DNA from: Candidatus Kaiserbacteria bacterium
GTDB lineage: Bacteria; Patescibacteriota; Minisyncoccia; Phycocordibacterales; UBA2100
Reading direction: 5' to 3'
NCBI GenBank assembly: GCA_016204805.1
Contig: JACQKA010000004.1
Coordinates: 1 to 12,576 of the forward strand
Length of the DNA stretch: 12,576 bases
The translations under genes and the position numbers were made by a program. Below the pieces are notes generated by a model. That model saw only the letters and a program-made list of their open reading frames with translations. It did not search any database and was not told where the DNA came from. Positions 1 through 12,576 of the stretch are shown here, piece by piece. The stretch's first letter is position 1, and each line of letters starts with the position of its first letter.

Positions 1-480
1 GACTTTAACCTTTCCACGCGCTTCGTCAAGTTCTCCCACCTTGCCCTCGAGATCCTTGAACGGCCCGTCGATGATGAGTACCGCGTCGTCAATCGAAAGG
101 TCGATGGTGTGTTTCGGCATGCCTTCGTTCATCTGCGCAAAAATGCCGTCCACTTCCGCCTTGGTGAGCGGCACTGCCTGATTCGCGGTGCCGACGAAAC
201 CGGTGACCTGCGGCGTGTTGCGCACGACGCTCCATGCGTCATCCGTAGGCACCATGTCGACAAGCACGTATCCGGAGAGTATTTTTTCGCGGATCTCCGC
301 CTTGCGGCCGCCTTTCACTTTTATTTTTTTCTCGACAGGCACGACAACGTCAAAGATCCTTTCCTTCATACCGAACGATTCGATGCGCTGACGCAGATTA
401 CGCGCGACCGCATCTTCGTATCCGGAATACGTATGCACTGCATACCATCCGCGCTGTGCTCCGTGTACTTGTTTAGCCAT
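1..480 (-). CDS. nusG: Transcription termination/antitermination factor NusG (C-terminal end runs off the window)
   Basis: Absent from the ORF track because it is open at the window edge. Hand translation from the ATG (cat 478-480) gives MAKQVHGAQRGWYAVHTYSGYEDAVARNLRQRIESFGMKERIFDVVVPVEKKIKVKGGRKAEIREKILSGYVLVDM...IIDGPFKDLEGKVGELDE. This shows the NGN-domain pattern (WY.V.T.SG.E) and the start of a KOW motif. It begins 3 nt after the secE stop, which is the conserved secE-nusG order. Confidence 0.85.
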   Translation of the reverse strand, partial: MAKQVHGAQRGWYAVHTYSGYEDAVARNLRQRIESFGMKERIFDVVVPVEKKIKVKGGRKAEIREKILSGYVLVDMVPTDDAWSVVRNTPQVTGFVGTANQAVPLTKAEVDGIFAQMNEGMPKHTIDLSIDDAVLIIDGPFKDLEGKVGELDEARGKVKV

Positions 481-483
481 AGT

Positions 484-813
484 TTATTGCGCTTGAGGCG
501 CCGGTGCCGTACCCTTCGGCGCCGGTTCATTCGTAAAGACCGGCATGCTGTTGTTCGCCCCCGGCACTACAGTGAAGTCCGGAGTCGGGGTCGCCGGCGG
601 CGTTGTTACTACAGGAGCCGACAAACCTTCGGTGCCCAGGAACGTCTGCAATCCGCGCGTGAAGAAGAAGTCAAAGAAGCCGATGTATAGCGCGACAGCG
701 ATCGAAATGCCGATCACGAGCACCGTGTATACGATGGTCTGCATCTGCGTCGGCCATGCGACATGCTTGAGCTCGACACGGGTGTCTTGGATGTATTTAC
801 CAAATGCACTCAT
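484..813 (-). CDS. secE: Preprotein translocase subunit SecE, with a ~50-aa Pro/Thr/Ala-rich C-terminal tail
   Basis: The 109-aa ORF carries the SecE signature ELKHVAWPT followed by a single TM segment (TIVYTVLVIGISIAVALYIGFFDFFF). It lies immediately upstream of nusG. The tail is GTEGLSAPVVTTPPATPTPDFTVVPG...APKGTAPAPQAQ. Confidence 0.8.
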   Translation of the reverse strand: MSAFGKYIQDTRVELKHVAWPTQMQTIVYTVLVIGISIAVALYIGFFDFFFTRGLQTFLGTEGLSAPVVTTPPATPTPDFTVVPGANNSMPVFTNEPAPKGTAPAPQAQ

Positions 814-835
814 ACTATTTAATCTTCATTTTAAA

Positions 836-851
836 ACGCCCTTTCGGGCGC
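836..851 (-). terminator. Short GC hairpin with a GAAA tetraloop followed by UUUU (terminator or 5' UTR stem-loop)
   Basis: The minus strand reads GCGCCC-GAAA-GGGCGU followed by UUUAAAAUG. It lies ~22 nt upstream of the secE ATG and just downstream of the predicted promoter at 865-893. Confidence 0.35.
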
Positions 852-864
852 TCAATATATGGGC

Positions 865-893
865 ATACTACTCCCGCCGCGAGAGAAAGTCAA
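865..893 (-). promoter_or_regulatory. Sigma-70-like promoter candidate for secE-nusG
   Basis: On the minus strand, TTGACT (888-893) is followed by a 17-nt spacer and TAGTAT (865-870). It sits ~50 nt upstream of the secE ATG. Confidence 0.4.
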
Positions 894-901
894 GAGCCGA
901 A

Positions 902-1018
902 GTTTGTTGAAAATCGATGCAATGCGAGGCGCGGACGAGGAGCGAACCGACCCGTATTAACAATACGGTGAGGGAGCACCGGAGTCCGCAACGAAGCAGA
1001 GCGCGATTTTCAGCAAAC
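902..1018. repeat. 117-bp intergenic element bounded by 15-bp inverted repeats, with internal hairpins
   Basis: GTTTGTTGAAAATCG (902-916) and CGATTTTCAGCAAAC (1004-1018) are complementary at 14/15 positions. Inside are GCGGAC (931-936) / GTCCGC (984-989) and a central 7-bp hairpin CCGTATT-AAC-AATACGG (952-968). Confidence 0.6.
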
Positions 1019-1189
1019 TTATTTCATCCGAACGCCTTTGAATGTCTTGCCCTTGCGCGCCATTTGATCCATGAAGCGACCAGTTTTGTTGTCGACTTTC
1101 GTCCAGCGTTTGTTACGTGGAGAAAGCACTTGGGAGCGCTTTGATACTTTCCCCGACCGCCCGTGACCCTTTGGTCCATTCTTCGCCAT
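1019..1189 (-). CDS. Hypothetical small, highly basic protein (56 aa)
   Basis: The ORF is probably missing from the track because it is short. Hand translation gives MAKNGPKGHGRSGKVSKRSQVLSPRNKRWTKVDNKTGRFMDQMARKGKTFKGVRMK, stopping at TAA (1019-1021). An extended -10 box sits 6 nt upstream of its ATG. I recognise no family, and it is not L33. Confidence 0.45.
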   Translation of the reverse strand: MAKNGPKGHGRSGKVSKRSQVLSPRNKRWTKVDNKTGRFMDQMARKGKTFKGVRMK

Positions 1190-1195
1190 GTGTCT

Positions 1196-1204
1196 ATTAT
1201 ACCA
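1196..1204 (-). promoter_or_regulatory. Extended -10 element TGgTATAAT, 6 nt upstream of the small-ORF ATG
   Basis: The minus strand reads TGG-TATAAT-agacac-ATG. The -35 region (AATCTT) is poor, as expected for extended -10 promoters. Confidence 0.35.
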
Positions 1205-1223
1205 ACGCTACAACGCGCAAGAT

Positions 1224-2924
1224 TCATTCTGTTAATATCCGTGCGAGTTTCAGATCGTCGAATGAATAGACTCCCTTGAGTGCTTGGTGCACGGGGGTAA
1301 GCCGCTCGGTACCGTACCGTTTGAACGCGGCTTCGATGTGCGGAAGCGCTTTTTTGAGTGCGGGTGAAATCATGCGCGCGATCTGCTCTCGAGTGACTTC
1401 GTCTTTCATATACAGCTGTGTGATGTGATCGATAATCGTGCTCTGTTTGAGACCCCGCTCTTTCGCAATCTCTGCGATACTCTTCCCTGCCTGCGCAAGC
1501 GAAAGCGTCGATGCGTGCGAATCACCTTTTTTGGCAGTGCGTTGTGTTCTCTTTTTTGGTGCAACACCGCCCGCGATCGATCCTCCTGCAGCTTTGATGA
1601 AGCGATGGACGTGTTCAGTGTGATCGATACTATTCATCATGCCGAAATGACCGCGCGCATCGGCGGAACGGCGTTTGAATTCCATATCGTGTTCCTGCAC
1701 CTCGGGATGCGTTTCAAGCGCGCGATCGTTCCATCCGAGCACATGGAGTCCCGATAGATTGCGCACGCGCGACAGCGCCACATATCCTTGCCCGTATTCA
1801 AATGCTTCGCGCAGATCGATAACCGCCTCGTCGAGCGTCATGCCCTGCGATTTGTGCACGGTGATAGCCCACGCGAGTCGGAGCGGTAGCTGGGTAATGC
1901 GGCCCAAGATACGGCCGCTATCACCAATGACCCATTCCGCCGGCTCGACGCTGATAGTGCTTCCTCGCAAGGTGCGCACGGTGGGCACACCATCAGCCGC
2001 AATCGCCGTGACCTCTCCTAAGGTTCCGTTTGCAAACGCGCCACCTGAAAGGTCGTTCTTGGTGAACATGACGCGGGCGCCTTGTTTGAGCGTGAGCGTC
2101 TCGGGCGAAAGGCATCCCCGTTTTAGGTTCGCGATTATGCTTTCCGGTCCGTGCGACGTCATCGTATACGCATGGGGTTTCCCCGCCATCGACTGGAGAC
2201 GTTTCGTATTCAAATGGTCGACATCTTTGTTGTGCGAGAACAGCCGCGGCGCATCCGCGGGCGCATCGCCTTCGCGTACCGAACGGGATTTGAGCGTCTG
2301 TTTCGCTTTTTCTACGTCGCCCCCACGGCGGATAGCACTCAATAGATGCACGAATGCCGCGTCCGATTGCCGATGCTGTTCGGAAAGATAACAGACGATC
2401 GGGTTGAGCTTGGCCCATGCGCGCGAGCGGAATGCGAACGGTGACTCGCTTTCATCGTAATCAATGGTGGGCTCGGCGTTCCTCCGTACGATGGGAGGCA
2501 ATTGAAAGAAATCCCCCACGACGACGACCTGCATACCCCCGAACGGCTCGGTGCGTTCGCGCGCGGCGCGCAATACCATGTCCACCATCTCGAGCACATT
2601 GCCCGAGAGCATCGACACCTCGTCGATTATCAAAACTTCCGTGCCGCGTGCGCGGCGCTTCACGTTGCTTTTGTCGGCGATCTCCGCAACGTCCCATTCG
2701 GTCAGGTGATCGCGTATGCCGATGCCGCTCCATGAATGGATGGTCATGCCGCCTATGTGCGTCGCCGCAATGCCCGTCGATGCGGTTATCGCCGGTTCGA
2801 TACCGTGTTCGCGTAGCCATCGCACATAGCTATTGATGGTGTATGTCTTGCCGCTTCCTGGCTCGCCCGTGAGGAAAACATTCGCACCTGTTTTCAGAAC
2901 TTTGAGCGCTTCGTCCTGTGTCAT
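1224..2924 (-). CDS. PIF1/RecD-like superfamily 1 DNA helicase with a C-terminal helix-turn-helix domain
   Basis: The 566-aa ORF carries Walker A GEPGSGKT, motif II LIIDEVSM, the PIF1/RecD-type motif VVVGDFFQLPPI and the late motif ITVHKSQG. A C-terminal HTH-like segment reads LSLAQAGKSIAEIAKERGLKQSTIIDHI. Confidence 0.9.
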   Translation of the reverse strand: MTQDEALKVLKTGANVFLTGEPGSGKTYTINSYVRWLREHGIEPAITASTGIAATHIGGMTIHSWSGIGIRDHLTEWDVAEIADKSNVKRRARGTEVLIIDEVSMLSGNVLEMVDMVLRAARERTEPFGGMQVVVVGDFFQLPPIVRRNAEPTIDYDESESPFAFRSRAWAKLNPIVCYLSEQHRQSDAAFVHLLSAIRRGGDVEKAKQTLKSRSVREGDAPADAPRLFSHNKDVDHLNTKRLQSMAGKPHAYTMTSHGPESIIANLKRGCLSPETLTLKQGARVMFTKNDLSGGAFANGTLGEVTAIAADGVPTVRTLRGSTISVEPAEWVIGDSGRILGRITQLPLRLAWAITVHKSQGMTLDEAVIDLREAFEYGQGYVALSRVRNLSGLHVLGWNDRALETHPEVQEHDMEFKRRSADARGHFGMMNSIDHTEHVHRFIKAAGGSIAGGVAPKKRTQRTAKKGDSHASTLSLAQAGKSIAEIAKERGLKQSTIIDHITQLYMKDEVTREQIARMISPALKKALPHIEAAFKRYGTERLTPVHQALKGVYSFDDLKLARILTE

Positions 2925-3065
2925 ACCCGCACACCCATTCGCACCTTGCGGCTTCGCCGCGGCGCGCTATGAATAAAGCAACGTTTTGCAAAAAAAGCAC
3001 TCGCGAAACCACTGCCAAGAGGTTGTTTGGAAATATGCCTAGGTGCGAATGGGTGTGCGGGCATG
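2922..3065. repeat. 144-bp unit made of 24-bp inverted repeats (23/24 match, inner 20 perfect) flanking a 96-bp spacer and overlapping the helicase start codon
   Basis: Positions 2922-2945 read CATACCCGCACACCCATTCGCACC. Positions 3042-3065 read GGTGCGAATGGGTGTGCGGGCATG, whose reverse complement differs only at position 4 (A vs G). The CAT at 2922-2924 is the helicase ATG. Confidence 0.8.
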
Positions 3066-3096
3066 GACGGATTGTACACTACTGTCGTCCCTAACC

Positions 3097-3130
3097 AAAA
3101 ACCGCGCACGTTTGAGCGTGCGCGGTTTTT
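3097..3130 (-). terminator. Rho-independent, symmetric (bidirectional-type) terminator after the SIMPL gene
   Basis: AAAAA-CCGCGCACG-tttgag-CGTGCGCGG-TTTTT forms a 9-bp GC-rich stem with a 6-nt loop and has A/T runs on both sides. It starts 10 nt beyond the stop at 3140. Confidence 0.7.
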
Positions 3131-3139
3131 GCAGCCACT

Positions 3140-3952
3140 CTATCGAATCTCGTACGTAATGGTCACGTTTGAGGTAATCTTGTTCTCCCCGGTGGGCACA
3201 CTCGGTGCCATCGCGGGGACTGCACTGCCGTAACCAGAATCCGCGCTCATGAGCGCTTCGCGTTTCATATAGATCGGGTACCCGCCACTGTTTTCGTTGA
3301 AGCCGACAATGCGCACGAGCGATACGCCAAGCTGGTTCGCGAGTTCTTTCGCTTTGCCTTCTGCATCGGCGATTGCCTTTGCACGGGCATCAGCATTGAG
3401 TTTGTCTTCCTGATCAATGGTGAACGAAAGTCCGCTTACGCTGTTCACGCCGAGTTTGCCGACGCCCGAAAGCAGGTCGCCTGCCTGTGCCGTGTCGCGC
3501 ACTTTGACTTCAACCGTTTGCGATACTTCGAATCCATCCATCACCTGTTTTCCTGGAGGGCAGCGATTCGCAGTACAGGTTTCCTGTATCCATTCGTATT
3601 TCGGGTTCACGTTGTAGGAGGTCGTCTTGATGTCTTTCTCCTCTATGCCTTGCGCCTTGAGGTAATCGACGATGGCATTGCTCTTCTTGGTCGCTACCGT
3701 CTGCGCATCTTTCACTTCTTTTGCCTCTTCCAAAACAGTGACACTGAATGTCGCAAGGTCCGGCACAGCAAAGATTTCACCCTCGCCGGAAACGGTGATG
3801 GTGTTTGTCGCCGTGGTGCCCGAACCCACGAACCTGAATTCTTTGAACGTCTTGATGGCGCTGGCCGCTCCCCATAGAGCGAACGTGACGAGCGCTATGG
3901 TCGCCGCCTTCATAACCATCTCCGGCGGCACGATGTGTACTTCCTGTGGCAT
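3140..3952 (-). CDS. SIMPL/DUF541-family secreted or membrane-anchored protein
   Basis: The 270-aa ORF has an N-terminal TM/signal segment (KAATIALVTFALWGAASA). The pattern VSGEGEIFAVPDLATFSVTV, followed by alternating beta/alpha segments, is typical of SIMPL-type periplasmic proteins. The start could instead be the internal Met at 3919. Confidence 0.7.
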   Translation of the reverse strand: MPQEVHIVPPEMVMKAATIALVTFALWGAASAIKTFKEFRFVGSGTTATNTITVSGEGEIFAVPDLATFSVTVLEEAKEVKDAQTVATKKSNAIVDYLKAQGIEEKDIKTTSYNVNPKYEWIQETCTANRCPPGKQVMDGFEVSQTVEVKVRDTAQAGDLLSGVGKLGVNSVSGLSFTIDQEDKLNADARAKAIADAEGKAKELANQLGVSLVRIVGFNENSGGYPIYMKREALMSADSGYGSAVPAMAPSVPTGENKITSNVTITYEIR

Positions 3953-4038
3953 ATCAAATATGAAAAATGCTAATAACTAATACTCTTATAATACTACGAC
4001 GGTGCAGTAGCGCTGTTTCTTACCAACAGCAGTGCTTT

Positions 4039-4115
4039 TGGGGTGGCTGATGGGGCTCGAACCCACGACCGCCTGGACCACAACCAGGAGCTCTACCAGC
4101 TGAGCTACAGCCACC
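4039..4115 (-). tRNA. tRNA-His (anticodon GTG) with encoded G-1 and CCA
   Basis: Hand fold: G(-1) GTGGCTG TA GCTC AGCTGGTA GAGC T CCTGG TTGTGGT CCAGG CGGTC GTGGG TTCGAGC CCCAT CAGCCAC C CCA. The G-1:C73 pair is the bacterial tRNA-His hallmark. Confidence 0.9.
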
Positions 4116-4200
4116 ATACTACTTATGAGATTTCGGCTTAAGCAAGTCCTTCTCTCGTCCTATATCATAATGATGAACTAGAAAATGGCAATTGTGTAGG

Positions 4201-4755
4201 CTATTTATACTCCGGCGGGGTTTCGGTGATGTCGACGCGGGCGTTTGCCAAACGCGCGAGGGCGTACAGAAGCGACGAAAGCCGATTCAGATACGCACGG
4301 GTGTGATCGGCAATGGGACGCTGTCCTTCGTCGTGCACAGCGACCACTCGCCGCTCTGCACGCCGCGCAAGCGTGCGCGCAACGTCAAACCAAGCCGAAA
4401 GCTCCGTCGCGCCAGAAATGAGGAAACTTCTGATGGGCGGCAATTCCTTTTCGATCGCGTTTATGAGCGCTTCCATACTCTTCACACTGGCCTCCGGCAC
4501 GCGCTTCTCTGCCCCAGCCATTTCTGCCTGCACCGTGAACAGATGATCCTGCACATCGTGTATCAAATCCGCGACAGAACGCCCTTCTGCGGAAAAAGAA
4601 TCGCGGCGTGCAAACATTTTGCACAACCCGAGGAAAGAATTGCATTCATCGAGTGAACCCAACGCCTCGGCTATGCTCGAGCTCTTGGACATCTTTTGAT
4701 TGCAGCCGAATAGCCCCGTTTTCCCGCCATCGCCTTTCCCAGTGAAGAGAGCCAT
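4201..4755 (-). CDS. PduO-type ATP:cob(I)alamin adenosyltransferase
   Basis: The N-terminal motif FTGKGDGGKTGL matches the T.xGDxGxT signature, and the rest is a ~180-aa helical-bundle-length protein. The track starts at GTG (4761), but the ATG at 4755 is more likely. Confidence 0.8.
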   Translation of the reverse strand: MALFTGKGDGGKTGLFGCNQKMSKSSSIAEALGSLDECNSFLGLCKMFARRDSFSAEGRSVADLIHDVQDHLFTVQAEMAGAEKRVPEASVKSMEALINAIEKELPPIRSFLISGATELSAWFDVARTLARRAERRVVAVHDEGQRPIADHTRAYLNRLSSLLYALARLANARVDITETPPEYK

Positions 4756-4761
4756 ATGCAC

Positions 4762-4767
4762 AGTATA
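4762..4767 (-). promoter_or_regulatory. -10-like TATACT, 6 nt upstream of the adenosyltransferase ATG
   Basis: The minus strand reads gcaTATACT-gtgcat-ATGGCT. There is no GGAGG-type SD. Confidence 0.35.
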
Positions 4768-4777
4768 TGCCAGAAGA

Positions 4778-6156
4778 CTATGTATTTAATTTCTTTTCCC
4801 ACCTGTCTGCGATTGCTTTCGCTTTCTTGGCGGCAATACCCGTATACAGTTCAGACGAACCGAGCGCAGCACGCTGTGTCCGCGTCATTTTTTTAAGATA
4901 GTTTTTCATATCCGGATCATTCTTAATGACCTCTTCGAGAGCTTGCTGTCTCCGTTCCGCCTCAAGCGTAAGCAATCGTACTTTTTCATGTGCGTCAGGA
5001 TGTCCGAGAGAAGCGAGAATGATGTAGAGCGGCTCGGCAATGATCATTCCTTTTTGCAGTGCGAAATTCCGCCTTAGGTTACTTCGATCAACACTCAGTT
5101 TCCTCATCGCGCCTTCGAGTCGTTTTATCGTGACCACTGTATACCCGATCATTTCGCCATATGTTCGCGCGGAGGCGGAATTAGTCAGATCACGCTGGTG
5201 TTCGCTTATCTGATCCATGAACACAGTGATGAGGCGAGGCATGACGACTTTCCACATACTTTTCACATTCTCGAAATTGATAGGGTTACGCTTGTGCGGC
5301 ATGGTTGATGATCCAACCTGATTTGACGCAAACATCTCCCCCACTTCTCCTATTTCTGTCCGTTGGAGGTGTCGCATGTCATCGGCAAGATTTGCAAGGA
5401 TGCCCATCACTATCGTTACTTCGCACAACAGTCGCGCAAGCGGCTCTGGCGGCGCTATCTGAGTCGAGTGTTCAGCCGGAGTCAGCCCGAGTTCGACAAG
5501 CACCTCTGCTTCAAAGGATTCAGGATTCTTGAAAAACAGTGTCGATGCGTTATACGCACCAACGGCTCCAGAAAATTTCCCCGTCATAGTAATCGCGCGC
5601 GCTTCCAGCTCCTCAATGGATGTACCTAAACGGCTCACATAACCCGCAAGCGCAAAGCCGAATGTAATGGGCACCGCATGCTGACCATGTGTCCTGCCGA
5701 CTTGTACGGTCTCTGCTTCTCTGCGAACGATCCTAATGAGCATTTTTCTAATTTAGTAAGTGCTAGGGTGAGGACATGTTGAACCACTTCCTTAAAACGT
5801 AGCGCATTGGCCGAGTCGATGATGTCATAAGAGGTAGCCGTCATATGCACATACGGCTTTGCCGCATCGCTCACTTTGGACCGGATAACATTCACGAGCG
5901 CACGGATGTCGTGCCGGATCCGCTCTTCTTCTTTATATACTTCTTCAGGGGTCACTATCCTGCATGCGTGTTCGATTTCTCGAGCAATGCTTTTCGAACA
6001 GAGCCCCCGCCGATGCAAAACTTTGACGAGTGTTTTTTCGACAAGAAGTTTGTAGCGCAAAAATCCTTCTTCAGAAAGGTATTCCGCAACTTCTTTGTCC
6101 CAGTACCGATAGTCGATCGGTGAAATGCTCTCGAATTGGTTTCGTTTTTTCTTCAA
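4778..6156 (-). pseudogene. purB: Adenylosuccinate lyase interrupted by a 1-nt frameshift at an A5 run
   Basis: The N-terminal part (frame of ORF 5635-6336) reads ISPIDYRYWDKEVAEYLSEEGFLRYKL...HMTATSYDIIDSANALRF...LTKLEK. The C-terminal part (ORF 4778-5743) reads MLIRIVRREAETVQVGRTHGQHAVPITFG...SSTMPHKRNPINFEN, which carries the fumarate-lyase signature. The two parts abut at minus-strand GAAAAATG (plus T5, 5743-5747), and one extra A would fuse them. The only in-frame start after the tRNA is TTG at 6156. Confidence 0.8.
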
Positions 6157-6157
6157 G

Positions 6158-6241
6158 TGCGCAGGAGAGGACTTGAACCTCCACGCCCTTACGGGCACAG
6201 CCACCTCAAGGCTGCGCGGATACCAATTTCGCCACCTGCGC
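6158..6241 (-). tRNA. tRNA-Leu (anticodon GAG), long variable arm, no encoded CCA
   Basis: Hand fold: GCGCAGG TG GCGAAATTGGTATCCGC G CAGCC TTGAGGT GGCTG TGCCCGTAAGGGCGT GGAGG TTCAAGT CCTCT CCTGCGC A (84 nt). Confidence 0.9.
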
Positions 6242-6272
6242 AGGTGTTTGTCAAGAGCCGCATCCGATTCAG

Positions 6273-6935
6273 CTAAAGACGTTCCCCTACTATACCCAAG
6301 AATTTCTCTACTTTCAACCGCTTCCGCGAAAGACATACAACTTTCCGTGAATAATACATCTTGCGTAAAATTTTGAGGGAATCTGCCTTGGCATATTTCA
6401 GTTGTTCGGTTATCCCTCTTCCGTCCCGTGTAACGTGCCCCAAAATGTTAAGCCGCTTGAAAATTTCACTTTGCAACCATTTGATGTGTACGTGGCTTGC
6501 CGAAACGAAGGTCGTGTAAAACATGAAGCTAGATCTCCATCGAGGATCCCAATATGCATACGAGCAGCCATCTCCATCGTAAGAGCCCCTCAAAAAATCC
6601 CAAAACAGTCTCTTTGGGATCTTGAGTGAGCCTATTGTTTTTGATTTTGCCGGTGTCAAACCAATCGAGAAAAGAAACTCATAAAAAAGTGCGTTTTTGA
6701 ACTGCACGCGATAGGCTGTCTTTCCATCGCCGTTCGACTTCACTCCGATTTTTAAGGGGACGCCGAGACACTTCGAAAAATTTCTGAGCTGCTCCTGGTC
6801 TTTAGACGTAAGATCAATCAGATGAAAATATGGCGTCATGCACCCATCAGAAGCAAGCAAGCCGATGGCATACGCGAGCTCAGGCGTCCACTCCGTTGAA
6901 AAAATCTTCTTTGGCTTTGGACCTCTCTTCCCCAT
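6273..6935 (-). CDS. Free-standing double-motif LAGLIDADG homing endonuclease-like protein
   Basis: The 220-aa ORF has two LAGLIDADG-type motifs, LAYAIGLLASDGC and FLRGSYDGDGC, about 100 aa apart. GC content is visibly lower than in the flanking genes. Confidence 0.85.
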   Translation of the reverse strand: MGKRGPKPKKIFSTEWTPELAYAIGLLASDGCMTPYFHLIDLTSKDQEQLRNFSKCLGVPLKIGVKSNGDGKTAYRVQFKNALFYEFLFSIGLTPAKSKTIGSLKIPKRLFWDFLRGSYDGDGCSYAYWDPRWRSSFMFYTTFVSASHVHIKWLQSEIFKRLNILGHVTRDGRGITEQLKYAKADSLKILRKMYYSRKVVCLSRKRLKVEKFLGIVGERL

Positions 6936-7015
6936 TTCTTAACGATAACATATCCTCAAGGTAATAGCGTCTACCAATTGTGGATAAATAGAAAATCACA
7001 CCTATGTGACGTGTG

Positions 7016-7456
7016 TTACTCCTTTTTGTCTTCTGCTCCAACAGCGACTTCTTCTGCCGAGGCTTCAGCGGAAACTTCTGCAGTATCTGCAGTGGATACG
7101 CCCATCTCAGACATGCGGCGGAGGGCGCGCTTTGCTTCGCGAGCGACTTTTTCACGTACGTAGTAGAGCTTGGCGCGACGGACTTTCGAGCGGCGCACGA
7201 TCTCGAGACTGTCGATCATCGGCGAGTACAGCGGGAATGTGCGTTCCACGCCGACACCGCTTGCGACTTTGCGTACGGTACATGTAGCCCCCGCTTCGCG
7301 CCCGTGCTTTACCGAAAGCACGAGGCCTTCAAATAACTGCAGGCGGGTCTTGCCTTTTTCCTGAATCTTTTGCGAGACACGCACAATGTCACCCGCGCGG
7401 ATACCGAGTTCCGCTCGTGTTTTCATGTTGACCGGTGAAATCACAACCCCTTTCAT
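7016..7456 (-). CDS. rplS: 50S ribosomal protein L19 (bL19) with an acidic/Ala-rich C-terminal tail
   Basis: The 146-aa ORF reads GDIVRVSQKIQEKGKTRLQLFEGLVLSVKHGREAGATCTVRKVASGVGVERTFPLYSPMIDSLEIV, typical of bL19. The tail reads MSEMGVSTADTAEVSAEASAEEVAVGAEDKKE. Confidence 0.9.
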   Translation of the reverse strand: MKGVVISPVNMKTRAELGIRAGDIVRVSQKIQEKGKTRLQLFEGLVLSVKHGREAGATCTVRKVASGVGVERTFPLYSPMIDSLEIVRRSKVRRAKLYYVREKVAREAKRALRRMSEMGVSTADTAEVSAEASAEEVAVGAEDKKE

Positions 7457-7464
7457 AGGTGCGC

Positions 7465-7493
7465 ACTGTAACAGACGAAATCCGATTCTGCAA
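7465..7493 (-). promoter_or_regulatory. Sigma-70-like promoter whose -10 lies 8 nt upstream of the rplS ATG
   Basis: On the minus strand, TTGCAG (7488-7493) is followed by a 17-nt spacer, TACAGT (7465-7470), gcgcacct and then the ATG. Confidence 0.45.
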
Positions 7494-7526
7494 CTCGAGT
7501 TGACCTCGTTTGCGTTACTGAAAGTA

Positions 7527-7545
7527 GCCGCGTTTACGACGCGGC
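7527..7545. terminator. GC hairpin overlapping the pseudouridine synthase stop codon
   Basis: GCCGCG-tttacga-CGCGGC, with the stop codon in the loop. On the plus strand it is followed by GTTTTGTTG. On the minus strand it is followed by CUACUUUCAG, a weaker U tract. It sits between the rluA-family gene and the rplS promoter. Confidence 0.35.
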
Positions 7546-8298
7546 GTTTTGTTGTAACTTTGAAAACTCCGGGGGAGTTGGCGCGGTGAATGTTTTTTTC
7601 TCACCGGACGGCAGTGTGAGCGTGAGCGAACGCGCGTGAAGCGCCGGCCGCGTAAATCCTAAGAAGCACACTCTTCCTTCTGCATACAGATGATCACACA
7701 CTATGGGATGATGAATCGCTTTTAAGTGCACACGGATCTGGTGGGTGCGTCCCGTTTTCGGACGTACTTCTATGTGCGTAATTTTTTCTCCCGTTTCCGG
7801 ATCGACACCACGCGCGAGCACGTTCCACTCGGTGATGGCCACGCGCAATTTCCCTTTCTTCCCGTATTGCGCAGACCATCTGCGCGGATCGGTTTTCGTT
7901 CTCCCTATTTCCATTTCGATGACGCCACTGTCTTCTTTCGGATGCCCGTATACGATCGCATCGTATACTTTTTCTATCGTTCTCCCTTGGAACTGTTGTT
8001 TTAAGAATTCATGCGCTTCCGGCGTCTTCGCGACGATCATCACGCCTGATGTCGTGCGATCCAAACGGTGTACGATCCCGGGGCGCGGAACGACTTCGCC
8101 TTGCGGCGACGTCCACGGTTCACCGACATCTTTGAGTGCCGGATATTTCTCCAGAATCCATTCGACAACGGATGGCTCTTTCGTACGCCCGTCGGAATGT
8201 ACGATGAGTCCGGCAGGTTTATTGACCACGAGCACGCCGCTGTCTTCGTACAACACTACAGGCTCGTTAGGCTCCCATTCTGCGCTCGCGTTGTTCAT
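7534..8298 (-). CDS. RluA-family pseudouridine synthase (catalytic domain only, no S4 domain)
   Basis: The motifs are VVNKPAGLIVH, HRLDRTTSGVMIVAK (catalytic Asp) and PKTGRTHQIRVHL. The track ORF extends to 8763, but that part lies in an alternative frame inside uppS. The first plausible start is the ATG at 8298 (MNNASAEWEPNEPVVLYED), which overlaps the uppS 3' end by 32 nt. Confidence 0.85.
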   Translation of the reverse strand: MNNASAEWEPNEPVVLYEDSGVLVVNKPAGLIVHSDGRTKEPSVVEWILEKYPALKDVGEPWTSPQGEVVPRPGIVHRLDRTTSGVMIVAKTPEAHEFLKQQFQGRTIEKVYDAIVYGHPKEDSGVIEMEIGRTKTDPRRWSAQYGKKGKLRVAITEWNVLARGVDPETGEKITHIEVRPKTGRTHQIRVHLKAIHHPIVCDHLYAEGRVCFLGFTRPALHARSLTLTLPSGEKKTFTAPTPPEFSKLQQNAAS

Positions 8299-9013
8299 AT
8301 TCGGTAAGTATAGAGTCGAGTATCGATTCGCTGAAATCCGGCCAATACTGGTCGATGAAGAACAGTTCGGAATAGATGGATTGCCACGTGAGAAATCCTG
8401 AAAGACGTTTCTCGCCGCCGGTACGGATGATGATGTCGGGGTCCGACATGCCCCCACACCAATCACATAAAGTTCTGTTTCGCTCGTCAGCCTTTCTTCC
8501 ACACTTCGGACATGCCGATTGGTGTGGGGGCATGCCCGCGGTCCACAGTTGCGCACCGATACTTTCTTCGGTGATATTCCCCGCCGCACGTGCCGCAGCG
8601 GCGATCTCGGTGCGACCGCCGTATGACAGGCACACCCACAGCGTGAGCGCAGTATTCTTTTCGCTTTCCTTTTCGATGCGTTCCATTGACGCTCGCATAT
8701 CGGCATCGAAACGTTTACGCTCCCCCACGAATCGTATCCGTATATTCTCTTTTGCGAGCTCAATAAAATGAGTTTCTACGATGTCACGAAAAAGCTTCAT
8801 CAGGTACGAAACTTCTTCCGCCGCGCGATTCCAATTTTCAGTTGAGAAAGCGTACACTGCGAGGTGCTTCACGCCGCGGTCGCGCACCCATCGCACAGTG
8901 TCGCGTAGTCGTTCGGCACCCTGCCGATGCCCTTCTAGAGTCGGCAATCCGTGCTCTTTCGCCCACCGGCGATTACCGTCGAGAATGATGCCGATACATG
9001 CAGGAGTTTTCAT
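8267..9013 (-). CDS. uppS: Undecaprenyl (isoprenyl) diphosphate synthase carrying a 28-aa in-frame insertion
   Basis: The cis-prenyltransferase motifs are GIILDGNRRWA, FSTENWNR and IIRTGGEKRLSGFLTWQSIYSELFF..WPDF. The insertion PPHQSACPKCGRKADERNRTLCDWCGGM interrupts LWTAGM|SDPDIIIRTGGE. Confidence 0.9.
   Translation of the reverse strand: MKTPACIGIILDGNRRWAKEHGLPTLEGHRQGAERLRDTVRWVRDRGVKHLAVYAFSTENWNRAAEEVSYLMKLFRDIVETHFIELAKENIRIRFVGERKRFDADMRASMERIEKESEKNTALTLWVCLSYGGRTEIAAAARAAGNITEESIGAQLWTAGMPPHQSACPKCGRKADERNRTLCDWCGGMSDPDIIIRTGGEKRLSGFLTWQSIYSELFFIDQYWPDFSESILDSILTEYEQRERRMGA
8447..8534. repeat. Perfect 18-bp inverted repeats flanking 52 bp, forming an 84-bp in-frame insertion in uppS
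   Basis: CATGCCCCCACACCAATC (8447-8464) and GATTGGTGTGGGGGCATG (8517-8534) are exact reverse complements. CATGCCC occurs as a direct repeat at 8447-8453 and 8531-8537. Deleting 8451-8534 (84 nt) restores the canonical UppS sequence. Confidence 0.8.
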
Positions 9014-9017
9014 AGTG

Positions 9018-9290
9018 TTAGAAAATGATTTTGAAACCGTCGAATGATTGTGTCGGTTCTTGCCACTCTACGCGCACATCGTCGACACGCGCAAGCAGTG
9101 GTCCCTTGCGTAATTTTTCTACAAGCCGTTCCAAGTCTTCTTTATTTCCTTGCGCGACGACCTCGACCGTCCCGTTGTCGAGATTGCGCACGATGCCAGC
9201 AAGTCGCAACCCACGCGCCTTACGCTGTACAAAATCGCGATACATCACCATCTGCACGCGGCCCTTTACGATGCAGTGAATTTCTTGCAT
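9018..9290 (-). CDS. acyP: Acylphosphatase
   Basis: The 90-aa ORF carries VKGRVQMVMYRDFV (V.G.VQGV.FR motif), GIVRNLDNGTVEVVAQG and GPLLARV. Confidence 0.85.
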   Translation of the reverse strand: MQEIHCIVKGRVQMVMYRDFVQRKARGLRLAGIVRNLDNGTVEVVAQGNKEDLERLVEKLRKGPLLARVDDVRVEWQEPTQSFDGFKIIF

Positions 9291-9296
9291 AGATAT

Positions 9297-9304
9297 AGTA
9301 TACT
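9297..9304. promoter_or_regulatory. Palindromic AGTATACT giving a TATACT -10-like hexamer on both strands
   Basis: The minus-strand TATACT (9297-9302) lies 6 nt upstream of the acyP ATG. The plus-strand TATACT (9299-9304) lies 8 nt upstream of tRNA-Val position +1. The -35 regions are weak on both sides. Confidence 0.3.
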
Positions 9305-9312
9305 CGCGACGA

Positions 9313-9388
9313 GGGCGGTTAGCTCAGCTGGTAGAGCAATTCGTTTACACCGAAAAGGTCGCGGGTTCGAGTCCTGCACCGCCCACCA
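9313..9388 (+). tRNA. tRNA-Val (anticodon TAC) with encoded CCA
   Basis: Hand fold: GGGCGGT TA GCTC AGCTGGTA GAGC A ATTCG TTTACAC CGAAA AGGTC GCGGG TTCGAGT CCTGC ACCGCCC A CCA. It is the only plus-strand gene in the window. Confidence 0.9.
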
Positions 9389-9400
9389 AAATATTTTGTG

Positions 9401-9472
9401 TGCCCTCGGTTGGAATCGAACCAACATCAACGGCTTAGAAGTCCGACGCACTATCCATTGTGCTACGAGGGC
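9401..9472 (-). tRNA. tRNA-Arg (anticodon TCT) with a weak anticodon stem and no encoded CCA
   Basis: Hand fold: GCCCTCG TA GCAC AATGGATA GTGC G TCGGA CTTCTAA GCCGT TGAT GTTGG TTCGATT CCAAC CGAGGGC A. The acceptor, D and T arms are canonical. The anticodon stem has only 3 Watson-Crick pairs, with T27/T43 and A31/G39 mismatched. Confidence 0.65.
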
Positions 9473-9481
9473 GTGTGCCTA

Positions 9482-10018
9482 TTATACGCGTCTCCCTTTG
9501 CCTTGGGGATATACAGCCGCCATCCAGCGGATAATCATGTTGTCTTTGTGTTCAATCCAGTCGGTTGTGAAATCAAACCACACGCGGAAAAAATGCCTGC
9601 GCGAGACGGTGCGCAGGTGTCCGATCTCTGGGTCCTGTAGATAAATGTTTTCGTCATCGAGACCAACCACAATAGAATAGTGTCCGTCGGGCATCTCGTC
9701 TTCCGCAGACCCTTCCGGCCCCGGCGAGAACCAATCGACAACAACTGGTATCTTTTTATCGAGCCATTCCTGGACATCTTCGTATGTTGCGTGATCTTTC
9801 ACTATGGCCTCAAGACCGAATTGCTTCAATTCTTTAAGAAATGTTTCGTTGGTGGTGCCGAGATCCGGGTCCGTACCCAAAACAGTTGCGAGTTCAAGAT
9901 CGGTCTTTTCCTGCCCCGGCAGATTCCAGAACATGAGTAGCATTTTGAGCGTCGCCGGAGCGCACAAGCTCTGGTTGAGATACGTCTCTTGAAACGGTTG
10001 TACGGGGAGAAGTTCCAT
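9482..10018 (-). CDS. Peptidase C39-like (papain-fold) cysteine peptidase domain protein
   Basis: The 178-aa ORF has a candidate nucleophile in QSLCAPATLKMLLMFW, a candidate His in DGHYSIVVGLD and a following IYLQDP. This layout resembles standalone C39-like domains. There is no signal peptide. Confidence 0.65.
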   Translation of the reverse strand: MELLPVQPFQETYLNQSLCAPATLKMLLMFWNLPGQEKTDLELATVLGTDPDLGTTNETFLKELKQFGLEAIVKDHATYEDVQEWLDKKIPVVVDWFSPGPEGSAEDEMPDGHYSIVVGLDDENIYLQDPEIGHLRTVSRRHFFRVWFDFTTDWIEHKDNMIIRWMAAVYPQGKGRRV

Positions 10019-10025
10019 GGGACGC

Positions 10026-10054
10026 AGTATAAAACACCCTTATAAATAAGGCAA
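10026..10054 (-). promoter_or_regulatory. Sigma-70-like promoter whose -10 lies 7 nt upstream of the C39-like peptidase ATG
   Basis: On the minus strand, TTGCCT (10049-10054) is followed by a 17-nt spacer, TATACT (10026-10031), gcgtccc and then the ATG. Confidence 0.45.
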
Positions 10055-10074
10055 GTTGGGAATTTTGGAATAAA

Positions 10075-10395
10075 TTACGCGGGGTCGGCAACACGCACCG
10101 GCTCGCTTTTCGCTTTTTCAAACTGCAATTTCCGCTGTTCATACAAATCGAGCACGGCCTGGATTTGTTCGCGGCGCAACGTATCAACACTATCTTGCGA
10201 AACGGCCGCCGGATTCGCTTCCGGTTCCCAGGGCGATACGATAGACCACAGTGCGAATGCAACAGCCGATATCAGTACGATCCCGCACAGTGAAAGCAAG
10301 AGATCCCAGTAGCGCTCCATAAGTGCCCGCTCGCACCCCGGATCATGCCGTGCGTGCCATTGCCACATCATGACGTTCAAAAAAGGTATTCTCAT
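10075..10395 (-). CDS. Hypothetical single-pass membrane protein, fourth gene of the pilMNO cluster
   Basis: The start at 10395 (MRIPFLNVMM...) gives a TAG-T-ATG junction with pilO, matching the TGA-T-ATG junctions of pilM/pilN and pilN/pilO. The TM segment is YWDLLLSLCGIVLISAVAFALWSIV. The start is uncertain, and the ATG at 10320 is an alternative. Confidence 0.5.
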   Translation of the reverse strand: MRIPFLNVMMWQWHARHDPGCERALMERYWDLLLSLCGIVLISAVAFALWSIVSPWEPEANPAAVSQDSVDTLRREQIQAVLDLYEQRKLQFEKAKSEPVRVADPA

Positions 10396-10396
10396 A

Positions 10397-10924
10397 CTAA
10401 CTATTTTCTGCATCAGCGTAGACGCGCACGGTCATACTCATATTCCATGTCTTTTCCACTTTCTCCAAACGGAATTGTTCGATATGCGAAGGCAGTGGCA
10501 GTGTTTCTAAAAGTGTGATGAATTGATACAGCCGTTCGAACAATCCGACTGCGGCGAGGTTGACCGAATATGATGAGAGTGTTGGATCTTCGGATGCAGG
10601 GGAACCCGGCGTCACCGCATTCACCGTAACAGTGACACGTGCACTGCGTCCCGCGTCTTCGATGACGCGGATGACTTCCACCGGGTCGTATCCGCTCGTG
10701 ATGCTGTTCAGCTGTTCCCTATCCGTGCCAATGTCCCGCAGGAGTGCGCGCACCGATGACGTGTATGCCTGGCGCTGTGCGGCTTCGTTGTACGAATATT
10801 GGAGTTCGGACAACGCGCTCCGGTCACTATACATCTGATATGCGAGATACCCCACAGCGCCTACAGCAACACCCGCAAGCAGTATCGTGATGAGCGTCAA
10901 GGAATATGGGTAGCGTAATCGCAT
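10397..10924 (-). CDS. pilO: PilO-like type IV pilus assembly protein
   Basis: The 175-aa ORF has an N-terminal TM segment (LTLITILLAGVAVGAVGYLAY), then a coiled-coil-like region and a ferredoxin-like C-terminal part. The call rests mainly on position after pilM-pilN and on topology. Confidence 0.6.
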   Translation of the reverse strand: MRLRYPYSLTLITILLAGVAVGAVGYLAYQMYSDRSALSELQYSYNEAAQRQAYTSSVRALLRDIGTDREQLNSITSGYDPVEVIRVIEDAGRSARVTVTVNAVTPGSPASEDPTLSSYSVNLAAVGLFERLYQFITLLETLPLPSHIEQFRLEKVEKTWNMSMTVRVYADAENS

Positions 10925-10925
10925 A

Positions 10926-11456
10926 TCAAAATGATCCGCTCGCGGTTATCGTGAACGCGCCGCCTTCGATATTCGCAAGCGAGGTCAGTGGTACGGTGAC
11001 TTTGTCGATGGGTGCTTTGCCCTTGAGCGCCTCTGAATATGCCCTGAATGCCGAAGGATCGGATGCGGCACCTGAAACCGAGAGTGTTGACGCGCCGTCT
11101 TTGCGTCCATATACGAACGTGCGCAGTGCGACACCTTTCGGACGGTTGCTCAGCAACATCGAAAATGCCACTGAAAGTTCTGCCTTCTTGCCTATGGTGC
11201 CGAGAGCCGCCGTGCGCTTGCGCATAGCAAGCAGTATTTCACGATCCGACCGATCGTTGTCTTTGGCACTCTGTAACGCCGCGAGTGCTTCGGCTTTCGC
11301 AATGCGTTCGGTATGAGCGCGCATATATGCGGGTACGAGACCGAATATCACAGCGATCGAGGCGAAGAAACATAGGAGCGCACCTGTGAGAACGGCACGC
11401 CCCACCATCGCACGGCTCTGCGTCTTCAGCTGTTCTTGTGGAATGAGATTTGCCAT
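10926..11456 (-). CDS. pilN: PilN-like type IV pilus assembly protein
   Basis: The true start is the ATG at 11456 (MANLIPQEQLK), which gives the N-terminal NL(I/L)P motif that binds PilM, followed by a single TM segment. The track ORF extension to 11591 overlaps pilM. Confidence 0.7.
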   Translation of the reverse strand: MANLIPQEQLKTQSRAMVGRAVLTGALLCFFASIAVIFGLVPAYMRAHTERIAKAEALAALQSAKDNDRSDREILLAMRKRTAALGTIGKKAELSVAFSMLLSNRPKGVALRTFVYGRKDGASTLSVSGAASDPSAFRAYSEALKGKAPIDKVTVPLTSLANIEGGAFTITASGSF

Positions 11457-11457
11457 A

Positions 11458-12549
11458 TCAAATGCCGCGTAACGCGAGACCGATCGCGGTCGAGAGACCG
11501 AGCGCGTGATGTGAATCCACCGGCGGGATGTACTCTTCGAATGAGCAAACGTTCTGCCATACGTGCGCGTGGCTTGTCGGTGCACGCACACGCCCCGCTA
11601 TGTATTCGTCGAGTCCTTTCAGGTTCGAACTACCGCCAGTCAAGATGACACGCGACACCGGCGTTACGCGATTACCATGTTCATCGCGACGGGTGTCCCA
11701 GTATGAAAAGTGGCGGGCGACTTCATCTGCCAGAGCGCTTGCCGTACCGCTGATAGCTTCGACGACCTGCTTGTCGCCATCACGCGCGATGCCGTGTTCG
11801 TTCTTGAACTCTTCGGCTTTGTCGGCATCAACTTTCATCGTATCCATAATGACTTTTGTCATGGTGTCACCTCCGACTGACACCGTCGAAGTGAAGATGG
11901 GGATGCCTCTGTTCACGATGATGATACCCGTGCGGGCGCGGCCGAAATCCGCTATGAGCGCAACGTCTTTGCTCTGCGTGGGTAACACCGCCCGTGCAAT
12001 TGAACTGGCCTCGATTTCAAGCGAGAGCGGATCCGTACCCGCCACCTTGAATGCCTGCATATAGTCTTCGATCACTGTTTTCGGGAAGACTGACACGCTA
12101 ATCTCTGCGCCTTCATCGCCCCCATGCACATTCACGATGTCGTAATCATAGATTACACTGTCGGTTGGAAGCGGCACATGATCCTCGAGTTCAAATTCGA
12201 TCATGCGCATCACTTGCTCGCGATTATCGATCCCGAGCACGTGCATGGTGAACACGAAGCCAGTTTCTTCGGGAAGCGCTGCATGCACATAGGGAACAGC
12301 ATGCGCCGCGTCGCGAAGACCCGCGATGATTTTTCCCAGACGTTCGGAATCCTGCACGAGACCTTCGACGACGATACCCGGTTCGAGAGACGCTTGCGTA
12401 AAAGCCTCCACCTTCAACCCATGCGTCGACGGGGCGAGCGAGAGCCATTTGACAGAACTGTCAGAAATATCAACGCCGGCGGCATGCGGCGCAAGCATGT
12501 TTGGTAACGGGAACCATCGCTCCAAGAACCCCCGTGCATGCGGAGCCAT
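11458..12549 (-). CDS. pilM: Type IV pilus assembly ATPase-fold protein PilM
   Basis: The 363-aa actin-like fold shows GVDISDSSVKW, IADFGRARTGIIIV, VSVGGDTMT and VILTGGSSNLKGL. The start may be the internal Met at 12498. Confidence 0.85.
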   Translation of the reverse strand: MAPHARGFLERWFPLPNMLAPHAAGVDISDSSVKWLSLAPSTHGLKVEAFTQASLEPGIVVEGLVQDSERLGKIIAGLRDAAHAVPYVHAALPEETGFVFTMHVLGIDNREQVMRMIEFELEDHVPLPTDSVIYDYDIVNVHGGDEGAEISVSVFPKTVIEDYMQAFKVAGTDPLSLEIEASSIARAVLPTQSKDVALIADFGRARTGIIIVNRGIPIFTSTVSVGGDTMTKVIMDTMKVDADKAEEFKNEHGIARDGDKQVVEAISGTASALADEVARHFSYWDTRRDEHGNRVTPVSRVILTGGSSNLKGLDEYIAGRVRAPTSHAHVWQNVCSFEEYIPPVDSHHALGLSTAIGLALRGI

Positions 12550-12576
12550 CGGCTCACACCGATACGAGACTTCTGA

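Follow-up and report, generated by a model that had tools for sequence, protein, structure and literature searches.

Among the small mobile sequences of bacteria, MITEs (miniature transposable elements bounded by inverted repeats) form a class for which no autonomous partner is needed. The list of MITE-bearing taxa in a 2024 review does not include the Patescibacteria (the candidate phyla radiation, CPR), and in the literature searched we found no description of MITEs in these bacteria, nor of the terminal sequence reported here. The mobile elements of the Patescibacteria in general have barely been described, and their tiny genomes are usually thought to be repeat-poor. Here, we analyze a stretch of 12,576 nucleotides of Candidatus Kaiserbacteria bacterium (assembly GCA_016204805.1, contig JACQKA010000004.1, positions 1 to 12,576; the whole of this 12.6-kb stretch is called the window below), in which a long inverted repeat abuts the start codon of a PIF1-like helicase gene. 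This inverted repeat very probably marks both termini of a MITE, a non-autonomous transposon of 136 bp that was inserted on the helicase start codon, and is thus an insertion scar. The MITE family to which it belongs is large, with more than 100 listed copies, one of them a second and shorter copy within the window's uppS gene; it is apparently undescribed and is present in Patescibacteria and in environmental metagenomes.

Several described systems invite comparison with this family. REP and IS200-IS605-type elements have no target-site duplication and carry subterminal hairpins rather than terminal inverted repeats; here, in contrast, there is a clear 4-bp duplication and the terminal repeats are true ones. 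The IS1380 family, together with the eukaryotic piggyBac group, makes target duplications of 4-5 bp and has ends of the form CC.../CCC.... The Correia elements of Neisseria (CREE, nemis) have characteristic ends and a characteristic TA duplication, which are not known to be related to those found here. An end of a Correia element can, in combination with its flank, form promoter elements, and the transcribed stems give double-stranded RNA (PMC10969869). The present family resembles the Correia elements in size (100-150 bp for the latter), in having repeats of more than 20 bp and in lying directly upstream of genes; it differs in its ends (CCCGCACAC...) and in a 4-bp duplication (YNNR, most often TATG) that often contains a start codon. 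The element is thus not a Correia member, although by analogy it may be similar in its mode of action. The Rickettsia palindromic elements are called to mind by the uppS copy, which is palindromic and has entered the gene of a conserved enzyme in frame; the protein gains a peptide, and the open reading frame (ORF) is unbroken. The host phylum is a different one, however, and only about 5 of the 117 listed copies, among them that of uppS, are inside an ORF that continues without a stop for 50 codons or more to either side, most copies being at gene boundaries. The element is therefore not a Rickettsia palindromic element; the in-frame state is reached by the uppS copy and is not the predominant one. 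With bacterial MITEs the family shares its short length (80-148 bp), terminal inverted repeats, a short duplication, dispersed copies that have no ORF for a transposase, both filled sites and empty ones among relatives, and nested and clustered copies. It is unlike them in that only the outer ~12 nt of its repeat are conserved, while positions 13-21 co-vary.

The inverted repeat at the helicase start codon

The helicase gene occupies positions 1224..2924 of the minus strand and encodes a protein of 566 aa that carries an HTH_40 domain at its C-terminus, is intact throughout and aligns end to end with its orthologues. Since its N-terminus (MTQDEALKVL) agrees with theirs, the start is correct. 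A repeat search places the two arms of the inverted repeat at 2922-2946 and 3041-3065; each is 25 nt long, they are separated by 94 nt and they differ from perfect complementarity by a single mismatch (96% complementary). The proximal arm terminates in the helicase ATG (2924->2922). The inverted repeat pointed out in an earlier, sequence-only reading of this stretch, with one arm ending in that ATG, is thus real and is one pair longer than had been reported. Its 21-nt core has only two sites in the window when up to 3 mismatches are allowed, and 0.01 matches are expected from shuffled sequences.

Each arm is a composite of a 21-bp terminal inverted repeat (CCCGCACACC...) and a 4-bp target-site duplication, which is CATG at the distal end and TATG at the proximal end. 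The proximal duplication (2922..2925, minus strand; TATG on the gene strand) holds the helicase start codon, and the resulting junction, GTGTGCGGG-TATG, is the same as that at the ftsZ gene of locus L008 and in about 30 listed metagenome copies. Next to it lies the proximal terminal repeat (2926..2946, reading CCCGCACACCCATTCGCACCT on the plus strand), delimited by the family-wide complementarity of the arms, which falls sharply after position 21. The interior of the element (2947..3040, 94 nt) has no transposase-sized ORF in the ORF list and is, by sequence comparison, unlike the interiors of other copies. The repeat search gives the distal terminal repeat as 3041..3061, and beyond it stands the distal duplication (3062..3065, minus strand, CATG), whose ATG (3064->3062) occupies, in comparison with the closest helicase orthologue (locus L003), the native start position behind the native promoter. 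Because CATG is palindromic, the duplication lengthens the stem from 21 to 25 bp, and the single mismatch between the arms, at 2925/3062, falls outside the 21-bp repeat proper. All the close helicase orthologues have a C at position -1, so a subsequent C-to-T change is the simplest origin of the T in the proximal TATG.

The orthologue at L003, which is without the element, reads GTAGTGTACAATCC-CCGC-ATG-ATG-CAG..., whereas in the window GTAGTGTACAATCC-GTCC-ATG is followed by the element and, beyond it, by T-ATG-ACA-CAG.... The 14 nt of GTAGTGTACAATCC are identical in L003 and in the distal flank of the window, which places both the native -10 box and the native start position at the distal arm. 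Judged from this alignment, the L003 locus is the empty site, and the element entered a CATG containing the native start, with the consequence that the start codon was duplicated and not donated. A MITE-like insertion that had donated the start region was among the earlier suggestions for this locus; the insertion is borne out by the termini, the duplications and the empty site, but the start region did not come with the element, the native start having been duplicated instead.

The native start itself is of a kind that needs some explanation. Of 67 helicase orthologues, 34 have a TAnnnT hexamer exactly 6 nt before the ATG (the background being 1-2 per position), and Shine-Dalgarno-like motifs are rare among these orthologues. 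Such a -10 box at this distance implies a leaderless gene, whose mRNA has the A of the AUG as its first nucleotide. A TAnnnT peak at this position recurs in the hosts at large: of 1000 putative gene starts taken from the genome loci 143 have the hexamer, as do 90 of 627 in the listed MITE-bearing contigs, 71 of these 90 not being MITE-derived. Within the window, a TATACT is found 6-7 nt before the ATG of three minus-strand genes, those for an acylphosphatase (9290), a peptidase_C39-like ORF (10018) and a cobalamin adenosyltransferase (4755-4761); for the last of these, translation probably begins in truth at an ATG 6 nt into the gene from the listed GTG. Starts of the leaderless kind seem to be common in this genome. 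Upstream of the distal helicase ATG, a putative native leaderless promoter (3071..3098, minus strand) can be read, composed of a -35-like TTGGTT (3098->3093), a 16-nt spacer and a -10-like TACAAT (3076->3071) that is 6 nt from the ATG. It scores 8/12, which is under the 9/12 threshold of our sigma-70 promoter scan, and hence it is not listed there; that scan, of 2700-3300 on both strands, gave nothing at or above the threshold. An 11-mer from the inner part of the element's repeat, AGGTGCGAATG, recurs at 2879-2889 within the helicase coding sequence, where it supplies the codons for TGAN and is conserved in L003. This is probably chance, about 0.1 such local matches being expected by a rough estimate.

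The family, its termini and its target sites

The helicase relatives compared here are all metagenome-assembled genomes of Patescibacteria, the closest of them at 64-67% identity. In the 1.26 Mb around these relatives, paired termini were found only in the window and in L008. The latter has two copies (20818-21126, in tandem upstream of ftsZ), of which one adjoins the ftsZ ATG with a junction (GTGTGCGGGTATG) identical to that of the helicase, and the second is flanked by CAAA/CAAA; one decayed copy is present in L007. A metagenome scan, for which the query consisted of the termini and a 95-125-nt gap, matched at least 120 contigs. The family set comprises at least 117 non-redundant elements, those of the window and L008 included, and the counts given in this text are among these listed elements. 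A family profile gave at least 142 matches in at least 117 loci, the host contigs range from 30 to 63% GC, and there were 0 matches for the termini in viral contigs. The listed elements are 121-148 bp long when two short copies are excluded (it is the uppS copy that extends the range of the family down to 80 bp), and their ends are CCCGCACAC...GTGTGCGGG, that is, CCC...GGG.

The flanks bear the mark of transposition. Both flanks could be read in 114 listed copies. The longest direct repeat shared exactly by the two flanks measures 4 bp in 68 of these and 5 bp in 6; three of the four flanking bases agree in 25 more, while the flanks of different elements match at 6%. The commonest duplications are TATG/CATA, TAAA/TTTA, CTTG/CAAG, CATG, TCAA/TTGA and TATA, which roughly conform to YNNR. 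Both the prevalence of 4 and 5 bp and the CCC...GGG ends agree with the features of the IS1380 family, a possible affinity that we regard as a lead only. Where the two copies of a duplication are unequal at the outer base, a C is found 5' of the element and a T 3' of it in 7 cases, and the reverse in 1; at ORF starts the unequal duplications, that of the window included, always consist of a distal CATG and a proximal TATG.

The pattern used in the search had set or limited positions 1-12 of the arms. Positions 13-21 are variable in sequence (entropy up to 1.9 bits), yet 84-97% of their pairs are Watson-Crick and all four pair types are represented. Over positions 1-21 as a whole the arms of 115 listed copies are 84-100% complementary, from position 22 inward they are only 10-38% so, and G.T pairs add almost nothing. 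The arms of the family are thus 21-bp terminal inverted repeats at the level of DNA. The inner 9 bp of the repeats vary widely between copies, while the two arms of each copy remain Watson-Crick; many transposase specificities, correction of one arm against the other in a hairpin, or a structural requirement are possible reasons for such covariation.

Terminal repeats bounding a short non-coding element, a target-site duplication, dispersed copies and an empty site in relatives, the features by which a MITE is recognized, are thus all found in this family; the relatives that provide the empty sites are distant (67% identity for the helicase of L003 and 45% for the UppS of L013). Copies also occur in company. 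In addition to the tandem at ftsZ, one copy is nested in another at positions 67-335 of L201, and a cluster of at least 3 copies occupies ~2 kb in which no ORF reaches 80 aa, at 5723-7564 of L110 (the same region as L126). Two copies in L137 (2431-2560 and 7852-7981), in a contig dense in overlapping ORFs, have identical 21-nt arms and near-identical flanks and are 5.4 kb apart; this pair may reflect the duplication of a segment, or the two may belong to a composite structure.

The relation of the copies to coding sequences is a close one. In 34 of the 117 listed copies, flank bases 2-4 are an ATG, TTG or GTG that opens an ORF (80 codons or longer, the minimum being 25 for ORFs cut off by the contig end), and the start-bearing frame is open on 50 element sides, compared with 16 and 19 for the other two frames. 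When the empty sites of 32 of these 34 copies were rebuilt, 23 had a stop codon within 53 codons upstream, as true N-termini would show; the remaining 9 have at least 85 open codons upstream and so may be insertions at internal Met codons. For this reason the view that all 34 are start-codon insertions was abandoned. At the other end of genes, the duplication itself holds a stop codon on 14 sides, and on 6 an incoming ORF ends at the repeat's TAA (CCC GCA CAC TAA); the copy at gatA in L087 is one that adjoins a stop. Insertion has thus occurred precisely at gene boundaries, with start codons duplicated, stops adjoined and, occasionally, essential enzymes, of which UppS is one, extended by in-frame peptides. 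Gene callers will be misled by the doubled ATGs, the MPAH mini-ORFs and the inserts of 28 residues that result.

The dispersal of the family bears on two other explanations of the helicase repeat. A layout in which inverted repeats bracket ~100 bp upstream of a gene fits an invertible switch, with a site-specific recombinase acting on the 21-25-bp repeats, and Correia elements have been reported to invert (PMC10969869). We nevertheless find this explanation, which the earlier reading had put forward, scarcely credible for the present locus. The ORFs of the window have no transposase or recombinase domain, a single orientation is seen in the window and in two independent Logan assemblies, and there is no recognizable promoter in either orientation of the spacer. 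Transposition, moreover, accounts both for the flanking duplications and for the more than 100 dispersed listed copies.

The second explanation is that the hairpin is an evolved cis-regulatory RNA, a repressor of translation or a target of RNase III. It was argued previously that the single mismatch, a G.U pair in the sense RNA and an A.C clash in the opposite one, had been kept by selection at the RNA level. The AUG does lie inside the helix, and the cleavage by RNase III of transcribed MITE stems in Neisseria (PMC10969869) makes such processing plausible here as a side effect. Folding of the gene-strand RNA confirmed the long helix that had been anticipated (-81.3 kcal/mol, z -7.6); the opposite strand, however, folds equally well (-81.6 kcal/mol, z -6.8), so the fold gives no preference for the gene-strand RNA. 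The hairpin is present in 0 of the 67 helicase orthologues, an absence of the sort that the earlier reading had itself named as counting against a function at the RNA level, and the same ends are found at unrelated genes and within a coding sequence. As for the G.U pair, it belongs to the duplication (CATG versus TATG) and not to the repeat, and a YATG duplicated as a direct repeat gives a G.U on the sense strand automatically (flank excess 44 versus 1). Within the repeats of the 34 listed ORF-start copies the arms are Watson-Crick without any excess of G.U, the sense-strand mismatches being 5 G.U and 9 A.C. In Rfam, a search of 2850-3150 with permissive E-values gave as its best match a plant microRNA hairpin model (29.7 bits, the gathering score being 85), as a generic long stem may do. 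We therefore regard a regulatory RNA as very improbable: the hairpin is a by-product of the transposon ends, and not a selected regulator.

Expression of the helicase behind the element

The insertion added 140 nt, and the two ATGs are consequently out of frame. They are connected by a bridging upstream ORF of 47 codons (2921..3064, minus strand), which can be read from the distal ATG through the whole element to a TGA (2923->2921) whose overlap with the helicase ATG gives ATGA, a layout that is classical for termination-reinitiation. It is now the distal ATG that the native promoter faces, and transcription would start at 3064. Ribosomes would translate the bridging ORF, in so doing also melting the hairpin, and would then terminate and reinitiate at the helicase ATG via the ATGA. 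The helicase may still be made in this way, a tentative proposal that in our estimate falls just short of being probable. Copies in such positions are in any case natural experiments on the ability of leaderless genes to tolerate 140 bp between promoter and ORF.

The other members of the family are informative on this point. Most listed copies have ends of the CACACT type, so that the distal ATG opens merely ATG CCC GCA CAC TAA; the window copy has a CACACC-type end, which is without that TAA stop. Among the listed copies with CACACC-type ends, 6 of the 8 whose far end is at an ORF start keep the frame open over 40 codons or more, versus 11 of the 57 others (Fisher p=0.003). In those ORF-start copies it stops at the ORF's start codon or a little short of it, or else fuses to the ORF. 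These results suggest selection for the bridging frame.

It could be argued, on the contrary, that the insertion silences the helicase or strongly reduces its expression, the helix burying both the AUG and a weak GGUG, and that the gene is intact since the insertion is recent. The perfect 21-bp repeats do suggest a young copy and the helix is very stable. Furthermore, the proximal end of the window copy has GGGTGT in place of the -10-like hexamer TAGTGT that most listed copies have 6 nt before the ATG, the 60 nt that precede the helicase ATG are free of TAnnnT, and the spacer contains no promoter-like site. Against this, the helicase ORF is of full length and aligned end to end with its orthologues, the bridging ORF ends precisely in ATGA, and read-through copies next to ORF starts keep their frame open more often than the controls; we consider silencing unlikely. 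A related idea in the sequence-only reading was that read-through transcripts from the upstream SIMPL gene are silenced or become substrates of RNase III, translatable mRNA coming only from a promoter in the spacer. A cut of the stem by RNase III is possible as a side effect, but the putative promoter lies upstream of the distal arm and not in the spacer. The premise of read-through is itself affected, as a bidirectional, intrinsic-terminator-like hairpin (3096..3131; a perfect 15-bp stem and a 6-nt loop, with an A-run and a T-run on either side) stands between SIMPL (3140-3952) and the distal arm.

In other copies the element might act on transcription directly. The main type of end (...TTAGTGTGCGGG), when joined to TATG, reads TAGTGT-GCGGGT-ATG, which is the TAnnnT-6 nt-ATG geometry of the host; the end variants are TTAGTGTGCGGGTATG, a putative -10 mimic, and a TTGG variant. 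TAGTGT is present at 29 of 34 ORF-proximal ends versus 110 of 162 other ends (p=0.06), and in one subfamily the orientation of the copies toward the adjacent ORF start is biased 8:0. At the helicase, an outward promoter in the element, as in the Correia elements, would give a transcript without the distal arm and with the proximal ATG free, and it would draw on the same main-type geometry, end counts and orientation bias; promoters in MITEs are documented (PMC10969869). Since the window copy has the hexamer GGGTGT, with no TAnnnT near the ATG and an empty promoter scan on both strands of 2700-3300, this possibility seems to us quite improbable for the present gene. A conserved interior motif of one subfamily, TTCATAAGAGGC, was considered as a gene-facing -35 box and rejected, the ORF starts adjoining the opposite end (8:0).

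A more general speculation, and to our mind a rather doubtful one, is that the family is adapted to leaderless genes, with a duplication that preferentially holds the start codon and ends that act as a portable -10 box and start site in CPR bacteria. On such a scheme the element would re-supply a -10 box at the needed distance and could move or rewire transcription starts, while the CACACC-type variants, which lack both the -10 mimic and the TAA, would survive through an open frame coupling the old start to the new. If the end of the repeat does act as a -10 box at leaderless spacing, it would constitute a compact portable start-site module.

Taken as a whole, the insertion of a MITE on the start of a leaderless helicase gene, together with the bridging route of expression, is in our judgment likely to be the best explanation of this locus. 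Several observations nevertheless count against it. The two copies of the duplication at the helicase are unequal (CATG and TATG), and what the window copy has in common with the main family is just the terminal 10-13 nt, the length of the repeat, the size and the register of the flanks. The nhmmer family profile misses both window copies, whose interiors are unique. No autonomous transposase with the family ends was found in ~2 Mb of retrieved loci by a search for end pairs 0.5-8 kb apart with matching flanks; when pairs 0.2-8 kb apart were accepted, with flanks matching or not, they were just neighboring, tandem or nested MITEs. With regard to expression, the family comparison of frames involves 8 copies, of which two are near-identical, and the 47-codon frame and its ATGA could have arisen by chance (by a rough estimate, 0.1-0.2 for the open frame x 0.25 for the A). 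Finally, the 5' AUG of the predicted leaderless transcript is paired in the minimum-energy fold, and such pairing could hinder initiation unless translation is co-transcriptional.

The uppS copy and other features of the window

The second copy in the window lies within uppS, the gene for undecaprenyl-diphosphate synthase (8267-9013, minus strand), and was found by a window-wide repeat search that gave arms at 8447-8464 and 8517-8534. This shorter member of the family (8447..8534, minus strand) consists of an 80-bp element (8451-8530) with 14-bp inverted repeats (CCCCCACACCAATC), bounded by CATG duplications at 8447-8450 and 8531-8534. The start of its arm, CATGCCCCCACACCAATC, is nearly the same as that of the helicase copy, CATGCCCGCACACCCATTCG, and the 14-mer common to the two copies has 4 matches in the window versus 0.14 expected. 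The insert amounts to 84 nt (the 80-bp element and one CATG), is in frame and adds PPHQSACPKCGRKADERNRTLCDWCGGM between ...WTAGM and SDPDIIIRT.... In an alignment with the UppS orthologue of L013 (45% identity), a 28-residue gap falls exactly at the position of the insert, and UppS with its insert still fits the Prenyltransf profile end to end; an alignment of UppS against the PDB was too gappy for locating the insert. The 28 added residues carry CPKC-x13-CDWC, a zinc-ribbon-like spacing of cysteines that derives in part from the GTGTG motif of the repeat.

Elsewhere in the window, Rfam at gathering scores found tRNAs only. Exact-protein look-ups placed the helicase in two short identical Logan contigs and left UppS, PilM and SecE unmatched. 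The purB gene (adenylosuccinate lyase, 4778-6336, minus strand) is split over two frames, its N-terminal part (...SISPIDYRYW...VHMTATSYDIIDSANALRF...) being in the ORF 5635-6336 and the rest (GRTHGQHAVPITFG...) in the ORF 4778-5743. The switch of frame occurs near 5743-5760, at an A-run, and could be a frameshift, the sign of a pseudogene or an assembly error. A free-standing LAGLIDADG_3 ORF (6273-6935, minus strand) is located directly upstream of a tRNA-Leu(GAG) (6157-6241).

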